DNA of 8,262 nt from a virus (taxonomy: Duplodnaviria; Heunggongvirae; Uroviricota; Caudoviricetes): the IMG/VR virus record IMGVR_UViG_2529292873_000013. One strand, written 5' to 3'. A model generated the notes under the pieces. It was given only the letters and a program-made list of their open reading frames with translations. It did not search any database and was not told where the DNA came from. The position numbers and the translations under genes were made by a program. Positions 7,215 to 8,262 of the stretch are shown here, piece by piece. Each line of letters opens with the position of its first letter. The first letter of the stretch is position 1.

Positions 7215-7493
7215 TTACCTCCAGATCCGTTGCTGGAATGTGCGGGACGGACGCGGTGGCCGTTCGGAGTAAGGGAGCCTGACGGAGATTATCCAGTGAC
7301 GGTAGTCGAGGCTAAGGGCTTTTTTAACCTCGCATCCGCGCCTGCGGTAACACTGAATGAGCCATTCGGCCTGTTCTTCAGTGCATGGGGGATGCTGGTA
7401 CCAGTCAGATTTGAATGCGTGAAAACACCGTCCGCGCCTGCTGGCAAAGACGGCAGAATCATCAGAATTGTATAATTTGGTATCGTGCGCCAT
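7215..7493 (-). CDS. hypothetical protein, 92 aa, in the position of rem in the Qin prophage
   Basis: ATG at 7491..7493 gives MAHDTKLYNSDDSAVFASRRGRCFHAFKSDWYQHPPCTEEQAEWLIQCYRRRGCEVKKAL.... The track's TTG start at 7574 lies inside the hok terminator U-tract, so I use the ATG. Stop is 1 nt before the DUF968 GTG. Weak ribosome-binding site. Confidence 0.4.
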   Translation of the reverse strand: MAHDTKLYNSDDSAVFASRRGRCFHAFKSDWYQHPPCTEEQAEWLIQCYRRRGCEVKKALSLDYRHWIISVRLPYSERPPRPSRTFQQRIWR

Positions 7494-7563
7494 CGGTTGT
7501 CTCTGCTGGCGCAGCAGGTGCCAGTTGTTCAGGCTGGCGTGCGAATTGTAAACCAGAATGCCA

Positions 7564-7592
7564 GGAAAAAACAAAACCCGCCGAAGCGGGTT
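7564..7592 (-). terminator. intrinsic terminator ending the hok mRNA
   Basis: Minus-strand RNA: aacccgc-uucg-gcggguu hairpin followed by uuuguuuuuu (plus 7566..7592). Confidence 0.65.
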
Positions 7593-7659
7593 AAGTGCGG
7601 GTGCGTTGAGGATGCCTGATTCATCAGAGGTGGCGAGGGATTTCTCCCCCGCCGGTCTC

Positions 7660-7815
7660 TTACTCCTCAGGTTCGTAAGCTGTGAAGACAGCGACCTCCG
7701 TCTGGCCGGTTCGGATTCGTACCTCGCAGAGGTCTTTCCTCGTTACCAGTGCCGTCACTATGACGGTTAAACAGATGACGATCAGGGCGATTAACATCGC
7801 CTTTTGCTGCTTCAT
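7660..7815 (-). CDS. hokD: Hok-family type I toxin (HokD/RelF-like), 51 aa
   Basis: ATG at 7813..7815 gives MKQQKAMLIALIVICLTVIVTALVTRKDLCEVRIRTGQTEVAVFTAYEPEE: one transmembrane helix and the conserved Cys/Glu Hok tail. An in-frame upstream ATG at 7872 (track ORF 7660..7872) is in the position of mok. The mRNA has complementary 5' and 3' elements and a terminator. Confidence 0.9.
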   Translation of the reverse strand: MKQQKAMLIALIVICLTVIVTALVTRKDLCEVRIRTGQTEVAVFTAYEPEE

Positions 7816-7828
7816 AGCCTGCTTCTCC

Positions 7829-7857
7829 TTGCCTTTCGGCGCGTAAGAGGCTAACCT
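7829..7857 (+). promoter_or_regulatory. putative sok antisense promoter
   Basis: Plus-strand -35 TTGCCT (7829..7834), 17-bp spacer, -10 TAACCT (7852..7857). Same placement and similar hexamers to the plasmid R1 sok promoter as I recall it. Confidence 0.45.
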
Positions 7858-7863
7858 ACGTTT

Positions 7864-7935
7864 GTGAAGCATAGATTGGGCCTCAGATTAATGTTAAGCG
7901 TCTTGCAGGACGCGTAATGTTAACTGGGGCTTTTC
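7864..7935 (+). ncRNA. sok: putative Sok-like antisense RNA, complementary to the hok/mok leader
   Basis: Inferred from the promoter above; transcript would be antisense to the mok-position start at 7872. Downstream stem GTCTGCCT...AGGCAGAC at about 7939..7968. Ends are approximate. Confidence 0.4.
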
Positions 7936-7990
7936 TCTGTCTGCCTTACGGTGGCATGCCCGAGGCAGACAGCCTCAAGCACCCGCAGCA

Positions 7991-8018
7991 ATTCTACTTA
8001 ACTCTCGCTTTACAGCAA
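7991..8018 (-). promoter_or_regulatory. putative hok mRNA promoter
   Basis: Minus-strand -35 TTGCTG (plus 8013..8018), 16-bp spacer, -10 TAGAAT (plus 7991..7996). Predicted 5' end GGGUGCUUGAGGCUGUCUGCCUC resembles the R1 hok mRNA 5' end. Confidence 0.5.
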
Positions 8019-8033
8019 ACCGTTTTGCCCGAT

Positions 8034-8047
8034 ATGGGAATTCCCAT
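8034..8047. repeat. perfect 14-bp palindrome ATGGGAATTCCCAT
   Basis: Read directly from sequence; lies between the stop of the 34-aa ORF and the hok promoter -35. Confidence 0.9.
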
Positions 8048-8058
8048 ACGGAATGAAT

Positions 8059-8163
8059 TCAGTTCCCCAGGCGCTCCATCAAAAACACAACCAGGCAGTA
8101 AACACCCACAACAGCAATAACAGCCAGAGCGCCTTCCATTACCAGTGAAATATCATCCGACAT
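8059..8163 (-). CDS. small hydrophobic protein, 34 aa, strong ribosome-binding site
   Basis: GGGAGGG 4 nt upstream of ATG (8161..8163); MSDDISLVMEGALAVIAVVGVYCLVVFLMERLGN, stop TGA at 8059..8061. Below the track's length cutoff. One predicted transmembrane helix with an acidic N-terminus. Confidence 0.4.
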   Translation of the reverse strand: MSDDISLVMEGALAVIAVVGVYCLVVFLMERLGN

Positions 8164-8262
8164 ATTCCCTCCCTTGGTGTGAATCCCGGCGAACGTTTTT
8201 ACCCCCACCGACAAATAACATATACTAGAAAAGCAATAGCTATAGCAACGCCTGCAAATGCA

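Follow-up and report, generated by a model that had tools for sequence, protein, structure and literature searches.

An 8,262-nt stretch of DNA from a tailed virus (Caudoviricetes; IMG/VR record IMGVR_UViG_2529292873_000013), referred to below as the window, carries a small toxin gene identical in its coding sequence (CDS) to hokD of Escherichia coli K-12. The question raised by this locus is whether the gene stands there as a complete, autonomous hok/sok toxin-antitoxin module, as the original prediction held, or as an appendage of relBE, as in K-12. Sequence comparisons indicate that positions 7565-8018 of the minus strand very probably represent an entire type I toxin-antitoxin locus of the hok/sok family, belonging to its hokD/hokW lineage and located in the nin-to-Q segment of a lambdoid prophage. 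All of the elements listed in the original prediction of a complete hok/sok-type module were found at or within a few bases of their expected places. That reading is right, and the module is an already known and very common element.

The 51-aa toxin open reading frame (ORF) belongs to the Pfam family PF01848 HOK_GEF (82.9 bits, cut-off 22) and to the PHROG family phrog_251 “MokW-like host killing” (114.7 bits), and in the scan of relatives the hok locus is a 100% match to HokD-type loci. The Rfam search that had been proposed as a check returned model RF01794, matched by the hok leader over its full length (model positions 1-157; 7984..7810, minus strand) with 116.2 bits and E = 1e-26, above the gathering score of 59. 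RF01794, though named “sok” antitoxin, models the hok-sense leader: its consensus extends from the translational activator element (tac) to the hok AUG, and Sok is the reverse complement of the middle part of this consensus. Matches to this model therefore fall opposite the real Sok gene, and the match found here identifies the hok leader. This strand sense is a trap for automated annotation. Several sub-threshold Rfam matches in the region 7400-8262 (isrK, ceN48, CRISPR-DR28, and rsmX) were discarded as hairpin or terminator look-alikes. One of them, to isrK, an Hfq-binding RNA of Salmonella prophages, covers the hok 3′ untranslated region (UTR; 7571-7652, minus strand) with 27.1 bits against a gathering score of 50 (E = 0.001), and probably reflects only the common pattern of a hairpin followed by a terminator.

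For comparison of the regulatory elements, one genome per species was scanned, yielding 53 hok loci, and 40 distinct full-length loci were aligned together with the window copy. The resulting 41-locus alignment spans Escherichia, Kluyvera, Photorhabdus, Erwinia, Pantoea, and Citrobacter. The expected in-frame upstream start at the position of mok is present in the window copy, where an ATG with its own Shine-Dalgarno (SD) sequence GAGG opens a 70-aa product. An ATG occurs at this position in 40 of the 41 loci, being in frame with hok in 28, offset by one nucleotide, as in plasmid R1, in seven, and offset by two in five, the last giving a 19-codon ORF. The in-frame mok start is thus the usual state of the hokD/hokW lineage. 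The sequence of the mok peptide is unconserved across the loci, which fits a role for mok translation and not for a Mok protein. Near the end of hok, the Tyr47 codon lies in a TACG motif in a hairpin loop, and the stem flanking this loop (alignment columns 313-315/325-327) shows 19 and 10 double changes in the RNAalifold analysis of the 41 loci. TadA-dependent A-to-I editing that recodes Tyr to Cys has been published for hokC, hokD, and hokE (PMC5630033), and the TACGAA hairpin loop at Tyr47 matches the published editing site of hokD.

The central regulatory feature of the family is present as well. A 5′ element complementary to a 3′ element about 360 nt away had been claimed; these are tac and the fold-back inhibitory element (fbi), which pair over 14 bp, with a single C bulged out, across a distance of 362 nt. 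The tac/fbi duplex has a predicted energy of −27.3 kcal/mol (RNAduplex), compared with −17.1 ± 2.4 kcal/mol in 2000 dinucleotide shuffles of the 3′ UTR, only one of which was as good. Apart from its own complementary DNA strand, tac finds its best partner on either strand of the window in fbi. Folding of the RNA, another check suggested beforehand, places this long-range pairing in the minimum-energy structure of the 415-nt transcript (−182.8 kcal/mol, z = −8.6). In this full-length fold the upstream complementary box (ucb) is paired with the mok SD, its residues C58, C59, and C61 facing G106, G105, and G103. When 42 nt are cut from the 3′ end, the predicted fold switches to pairing of tac (nt 3-10) with ucb (nt 55-61); the SD region 103-107 is then paired with the downstream complementary box (dcb) GCCUC at nt 136-140, in a hairpin that shows the loop CUUCACAAA (nt 118-126). 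Closed and open conformations of hok mRNA have been described for plasmid R1 (PMC9841398), and both are reproduced by the predicted full-length and shortened folds. The 3′-UTR stem-loop seen in both folds is expected, by analogy with the R1 model, to cap the processed (truncated) mRNA.

The absence of a conserved 5′/3′ pairing had been named as a finding that would speak against the module; the alignment instead reveals a pairing that is conserved and covarying, being kept with compensatory changes in 39 of the 41 loci. In the MAFFT alignment, standard tac/fbi pairs occupy 80.5% of cells, as against 34-55% when the partner is slid by one to three columns, a count that underestimates the lower half of the duplex since the presence or absence of the bulged C shifts the aligned sequences by one column against each other. 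None of 500 shuffles reached the observed covariation score or number of doubly changed cells. A bulge-aware duplex tabulation, which replaced the pair count and leans towards pairing since it takes the best duplex within a 26-column stretch, finds tac positions 3-14 paired in at least 38 of the 41 sequences. Compensatory changes comprise UA to CG at position 6 (11 sequences), GC to AU at position 14 (15), AU to GC at position 12 (three), GC to UA at position 11 (two) and one sequence at position 13. There are two clear exceptions: in the K-12 hokC copy (L015) the 3′ flank has no fbi sequence, and L047, a hokC copy from Shigella, is frameshifted. The tac/fbi core is found independently by RNAalifold (columns 3-8 with 411-416), together with the closed ucb/SD stem (14 double changes at 64/104; AU in 27 loci, GC in 14), the 5′ hairpin (columns 15-23 with 45-52, compensatory changes at 17/50) and the 3′-UTR stem-loop (conserved pairs 345-352/364-376). 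In nearly all relatives fbi is located 45-56 nt past the stop codon. One full-length locus (L005) has a partly deleted tac.

The claimed hok promoter can be read as TTGCTG-16-TAGAAT (8018..7991), although it is weak and falls under the threshold of a consensus promoter scanner. In hokW-sokW of the Stx2 phage Sp5 (Sakai prophage 5; Takada et al., 2021; PMC8621323), TTGCGG is the counterpart of the −35 hexamer, and the −10 hexamer is identical. Transcription is predicted to start at about 7986-7984, and the RF01794 leader model begins at 7984. The only minus-strand site reported by the scanner, TTAACA-18-TATGCT (7897..7868), is situated inside the leader and has no counterpart in the family model; it was taken as a chance match. 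The claimed terminator is present, its stem being followed by a U-run.

Likewise, the proposed antisense promoter is readable as TTGCCT-17-TAACCT, at the same position as the promoter of characterized relatives, and is also below the scanner threshold. The −35 position is occupied by TTGCCT or TTGACC in all 41 loci, with a spacer of about 17 nt and a −10 that is mostly TAAYCT. These hexamers overlap the hok SD and dcb, and their conservation is therefore not independent proof of promoter function. In hokW-sokW, TAACCT is the hexamer mutated to silence sokW, as inferred from a comparison of primer YO-421 with the native sequence. The predicted Sok RNA folds with −33.2 kcal/mol (z = −4.5), and its unpaired 5′ tail is complementary to the CUUCACAAA loop of the shortened mRNA. 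The coordinates of all features are listed in Table 1.

Table 1. Features of the hok/sok locus and of the surrounding prophage segment in the window.
Feature	Position	Strand	Sequence and remarks
hok CDS, 51 aa	7660..7815	minus	ATG 7815..7813, stop TAA 7662..7660; identical to K-12 hokD
hok SD	7825..7830	minus	AAGGAG; near-invariant across the 41-locus alignment
mok-position ORF, 70 codons	7660..7872	minus	In frame with hok; ATG 7872..7870
mok SD	7881..7884	minus	GAGG; 8 nt before mok ATG; invariant in 41 loci
TACG motif	7674..7677	minus	Hairpin loop; Tyr47 codon TAC 7677..7675; TACGAA invariant in 41 loci
Putative hok promoter −35	8013..8018	minus	TTGCTG; sequence reading; 3/6 consensus, weak
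Putative hok promoter −10	7991..7996	minus	TAGAAT; sequence reading; 16-nt spacer
Full-length hok mRNA, predicted ~420 nt	7565..7986	minus	Bounded by promoter and terminator
tac (translational activator)	7973..7986	minus	GCGGGUGCUUGAGG, the reverse complement of plus 7973..7986; pairs with fbi in full-length RNA, with ucb in 3′-shortened RNA; covaries
Stable 5′ hairpin	7937..7972	minus	mRNA nt 15-50; in both predicted conformations
ucb (upstream complementary box/anti-SD)	7926..7932	minus	AAGCCCC; partner of mok SD in full-length RNA, of tac in shortened RNA
dcb (downstream complementary box)	7847..7851	minus	GCCUC; pairs with mok SD region nt 103-107 in shortened fold
3′-UTR stem-loop	7632..7653	minus	In both predicted folds
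fbi (fold-back inhibitory element)	7597..7611	minus	CCUCAACGCACCCGC, the reverse complement of plus 7597..7611; folds, duplex test, covariation; kept in K-12
Intrinsic terminator	7565..7592	minus	Stem 7592..7575, U-run to ~7565; sequence scan
Sok promoter −35	7829..7834	plus	TTGCCT; aligned with TTGCGC of R1-type locus
Sok promoter −10	7852..7857	plus	TAACCT; 17-nt spacer; position conserved
Predicted Sok antisense RNA, ~71 nt	7864..7934	plus	Unpaired 5′ tail of ~11 nt, long hairpin, GGGGCUUUU end
Predicted Sok-recognition loop	7861..7869	minus	CUUCACAAA (mRNA nt 118-126); loop in shortened fold
SASA-family esterase	1949-3886	minus	Pfam
TerB-family fragment	4365-4511	minus	48-aa ORF matching C-terminal part; Pfam
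Antiterminator Q	4965-5786	minus	Pfam
RusA	5824-6162	minus	Pfam
DUF968/YdfU-type protein	6168-6458 + 6455-7213	minus	Split over two ORFs; Pfam
Single-base deletions	140, 447, 5860, 6151, 6464, 7131, 7139, 7166, 7653, 8022, 8048		Versus closest relative

The closest known counterpart among characterized systems is hokW-sokW, which is also prophage-borne and shares about 92% nucleotide identity over the module. The two loci have identical tac, ucb, mok SD, Sok −35 and −10 hexamers (TTGCCT and TAACCT) and fbi, and in each of them Hok is 51 aa long and mok is in frame; sokW was reported to be 71 nt long (PMC8621323), which is close to the length predicted for Sok in the window. They differ in the C terminus of Hok (…FVDYESEK in HokW, …FTAYEPEE in the window copy), in the sequence after fbi including the terminator, in the loop and Sok tail (CUGAACACA in hokW, CUUCACAAA in the window copy) and in the phage position, with hokW lying near an EaA-like gene and the att/int end, and the window copy between nin-type genes and DUF968-rusA-Q. 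HokW, which is 44% identical to R1 Hok, is toxic, and its toxicity is relieved by sokW expressed from its own promoter and restored by mutation of the −10 hexamer; sokW, which is complementary to the hokW 5′ UTR, has been seen on Northern blots, as has hokW RNA; its antitoxic activity is aided by RNase III and Hfq, and it vanishes after mitomycin C treatment (PMC8621323). Production of HokW requires RecA and prophage induction, while hokW mRNA is there before induction and does not rise afterwards; HokW appears about 1 h ahead of endolysin, and phage release drops to half when the locus is missing (PMC8621323). HokD protein, too, is toxic on expression according to the literature.

With the archetype, hok/sok (parB) of the R1/IncF plasmids, the window copy can be aligned position by position for tac, the 5′ hairpin, ucb, the mok SD, the Sok −10 and −35 hexamers, the hok SD, the TACGAA motif, the 3′ hairpin, fbi and the terminator, which follow in the same order. 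R1 hok/sok is, however, plasmid-borne and its Hok is distant in sequence; its mok is offset by one nucleotide relative to hok, whereas that of the window copy is in frame. In addition, the Sok terminator hairpin is about 18-20 nt longer in the window copy, and the single bulged C in its tac/fbi duplex is a further difference from R1. The hokC (gef)/mokC/sokC locus and the other chromosomal hok loci belong to the same family, with the same order of elements, the same tac sequence and, as in the window copy, an in-frame mok giving an extended Hok of 69-70 aa. Unlike the window copy, they occupy fixed chromosomal sites and not prophages, and their Sok hairpin is shorter; the K-12 hokC copy has lost the partner of tac.

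The statement that K-12 hokD follows relB and relE is accurate, as MG1655 has the order relB-relE-hokD in the Qin prophage. Identity between K-12 and the window starts at AGGAGAAGCAGGCT, 15 nt before the hokD ATG (position 7829, one base inside AAGGAG), and the shared stretch comprises the CDS, which is identical, and the 3′ hairpin, fbi and terminator stem, which are identical or nearly so; the sequences on either side are unrelated. Such a late start of the identity leaves K-12 with no hok promoter, tac, ucb, mok start or Sok. In K-12 hokD (relF), the third gene of relBEF, everything upstream of that point is replaced by relB-relE, and an orphan fbi is kept. Its inactivation is ascribed to a genetic rearrangement in papers citing Pedersen and Gerdes (1999). 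Both copies are located in lambdoid prophages upstream of a DUF968 (ydfU) gene and Q, while the gene directly downstream is rem in K-12 and a 92-aa ORF in the window, which do not align; the 92-aa ORF was considered as a Rem homolog and rejected, having no homology to K-12 Rem.

The view of hokD as standing here without relBE, on its own, agrees with tblastn searches of the window with K-12 RelB and RelE, which gave nothing meaningful, the window reaching only some 245 nt past the hok promoter on its upstream side; the full leader occupies the place of relBE. A weak RelE match at 1122-1223 (34 aa, E = 0.008), in the holin region, was dismissed as chance. No relBE was present upstream of hokD in the two closest annotated relatives. 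The autonomy of hokD was implied to be of interest, yet the autonomous form is common and has already been described in prophages. The promoter and leader segment 7790-8020 is present with at least 80% coverage in 4287 of 5426 complete E. coli genomes, at a median of two places and up to ten places per genome, plasmids included, and 79 deposited phage genomes, including many of Stx-converting phages, also carry the module. The relE-hokD junction occurs in 1173 of the 5426 genomes. The relBE-hokD fusion is the derived, minority state and the autonomous hok/sok module the majority state. A survey of 2025-26 found hok to be about fourfold enriched in prophages. Two single loci with other arrangements were seen in the scan of relatives: Kluyvera sp. 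L027 has the order relBE-hok with a different Hok, its RelE and RelB being 97% and 99% identical to those of K-12, while in L043 (E. coli ECMA0423), a copy of the K-12 type, both relE and hok are degraded.

By analogy with R1 and hokW-sokW, the locus may work as follows. The weak promoter would supply a stable full-length hok mRNA, shut by tac/fbi pairing, with ucb hiding the mok ribosome-binding site. Slow trimming of the 3′ end would take off fbi, upon which tac would pair with ucb, freeing the mok site, held in the hairpin with dcb, and exposing the loop. The unstable, approximately 71-nt Sok would attack this loop via its single-stranded 5′ tail, and RNase III would destroy the duplex. Once Sok synthesis stopped, upon loss of the prophage DNA or its induction, translation of mok would drive that of hok, and Hok would then depolarize the inner membrane. 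In this copy, trimming of the 3′ end, cleavage by RNase III, the coupling of hok to mok translation and the killing itself are all inferred from these related systems. The pay-off for the prophage is likely to be retention and/or earlier lysis at induction, as measured for hokW-sokW, and exclusion of other phages by the module is possible.

The window as a whole represents the late/nin-to-lysis part of a lambdoid prophage; every gene is on the minus strand, and the listed ORFs include a holin and a lysozyme. Prophage regions in E. coli from cattle and in O157:H7 E. coli match it with 98% identity and have the same gene order. In both annotated relatives, the gene corresponding to the TerB-family fragment is annotated as a pseudogene because of a stop codon inside it.

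Several observations weigh against a complete and functional module. The consensus scanner reported neither the hok nor the Sok promoter above its threshold, and the toxin reaches 48.5 bits against NCBIfam NF007279, a subfamily model of Hok toxins with a cut-off of 73, although the corresponding proteins are named HokD in RefSeq records despite this score. Compared with its closest E. coli relative, to which it is 98% identical, the window lacks a single base at 11 positions and has no single-base insertion. One of these deletions falls in the hok 3′ UTR (after 7653), and two (after 8022 and 8048) are a short way upstream of the −35 hexamer. Two longer gaps, one of 7 and one of 20 bases, are at or close to the alignment ends. 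As a result of the single-base deletions, the lysozyme gene (50-621) and the DUF968 gene are split and RusA is shortened. Homopolymer sequencing error was considered as their cause, and the contexts are not clear homopolymer runs; the deletions reflect either real pseudogenization of a decaying prophage or an assembly artifact, and the copy or its sequence may thus be slightly damaged. More generally, an intact anatomy is no guarantee of the R1 phenotype. As cited in the survey of 2025-26, chromosomal hokA, hokB, and hokC gave no post-segregational killing or rifampicin activation.

These points bear most directly on the possibility that the locus is intact in structure and physiologically silent, a recently inherited copy that no longer kills or stabilizes anything, a state already suggested for chromosomal hok loci. 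Decayed relatives fit this explanation (the copies with broken tac, a frameshift and lost fbi mentioned above), as do the frameshifts in the surrounding prophage genes. In the window copy, however, every cis element is intact, among them the paired positions with covariation between genera; another E. coli strain has a copy whose 231-nt promoter and leader match with 100% identity, and the close relative hokW-sokW is active; we therefore consider a silent locus unlikely. A smaller probability still is given to hok being chiefly a passenger of the early-right operon of the phage, expressed by read-through from the nin genes, with the Sok/tac/fbi apparatus secondary, as for hokD in relBEF. In the annotated relatives hokD is on the same strand as, and between, cro, the replication genes, nin-type genes, DUF968, rusA, and Q, so that antiterminated transcription towards Q must cross it, and the dependence of HokW production on RecA and prophage induction points in the same direction. 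Against this stand the promoter-like hexamers of the locus itself, a 5′ end coinciding with the start of the family model, and the conservation of both fbi and tac, the latter at the extreme 5′ end, which is sensible only for a discrete transcript; hokW mRNA, moreover, is present before induction and not raised by it. That the 5′/3′ complementarity and the antisense promoter arose by chance around an ordinary small membrane-protein gene would agree with the sub-threshold scores of both promoters, but is effectively refuted already by the shuffle test (1/2000), the covariation in 41 loci, the Rfam E-value of 1e-26 and the clear homology to characterized loci, and has almost no probability left. 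A complete hok/sok module of the hokD/hokW lineage is thus the reading preferred here.

Three further features of the segment were noted. A full-length match to STnc100 (Rfam RF02076; 101.6 bits, gathering score 47) is located at 4027-4193 on the minus strand, with the SASA esterase gene on one side and, on the other, a TerB/DUF3927 remnant lying downstream of Q. Directly upstream of the hok promoter is a 34-aa hydrophobic ORF (MSDDISLVMEGALAVIAVVGVYCLVVFLMERLGN; 8059-8163, minus strand) with a strong ribosome-binding site, GGAGG; two relatives have a hypothetical protein annotated at the same position. This ORF has no match among Pfam, NCBIfam, and PHROG families and possibly encodes one more of the small membrane proteins found in the nin region. 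A promoter-like sequence on the plus strand, TTTACC-17-TATACT (9/12; 8198-8226), is directed away from hok and lies antisense to the stretch that immediately precedes the start codon of this ORF.

The autonomous module described here also shows a localized pattern of variation. Among 11 near-identical loci of hokD/hokW type, 13 of the 20 columns at 7860-7879 vary, compared with one to four in the neighboring bins and one variable column per 20 in the adjacent Sok hairpin (7880-7919). The variable stretch encodes the Sok 5′ tail and the target loop at the mok start, the same 9-12 nt forming both, and the three hok copies of a single Shigella flexneri genome (L007, L009, and L013) all differ there. 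Such concentrated variation suggests diversifying Sok/hok recognition specificity and would fit copy-specific recognition by the antitoxin; its concentration in the loop among close relatives is the only, and mildly, new observation made here. Since the window copy belongs to the early-right operon and shares the strand of Q, antiterminated transcription upon induction may silence the convergent Sok promoter. A speculative extension, which we consider rather improbable, is that each prophage has a private Sok/hok code, with no cross-cover between co-residents, and that silencing of Sok by early transcription at induction times the release of Hok. If true, the private code and the induction timing would be refinements of a known system.

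The practical value of the finding lies in annotation: RefSeq marks only the hokD CDS, and the Sok RNA, mok, and the regulatory elements of the mRNA are unrecorded in thousands of genomes. For the biology of the prophages concerned, the module may influence prophage retention and the timing of lysis, as shown for hokW-sokW.

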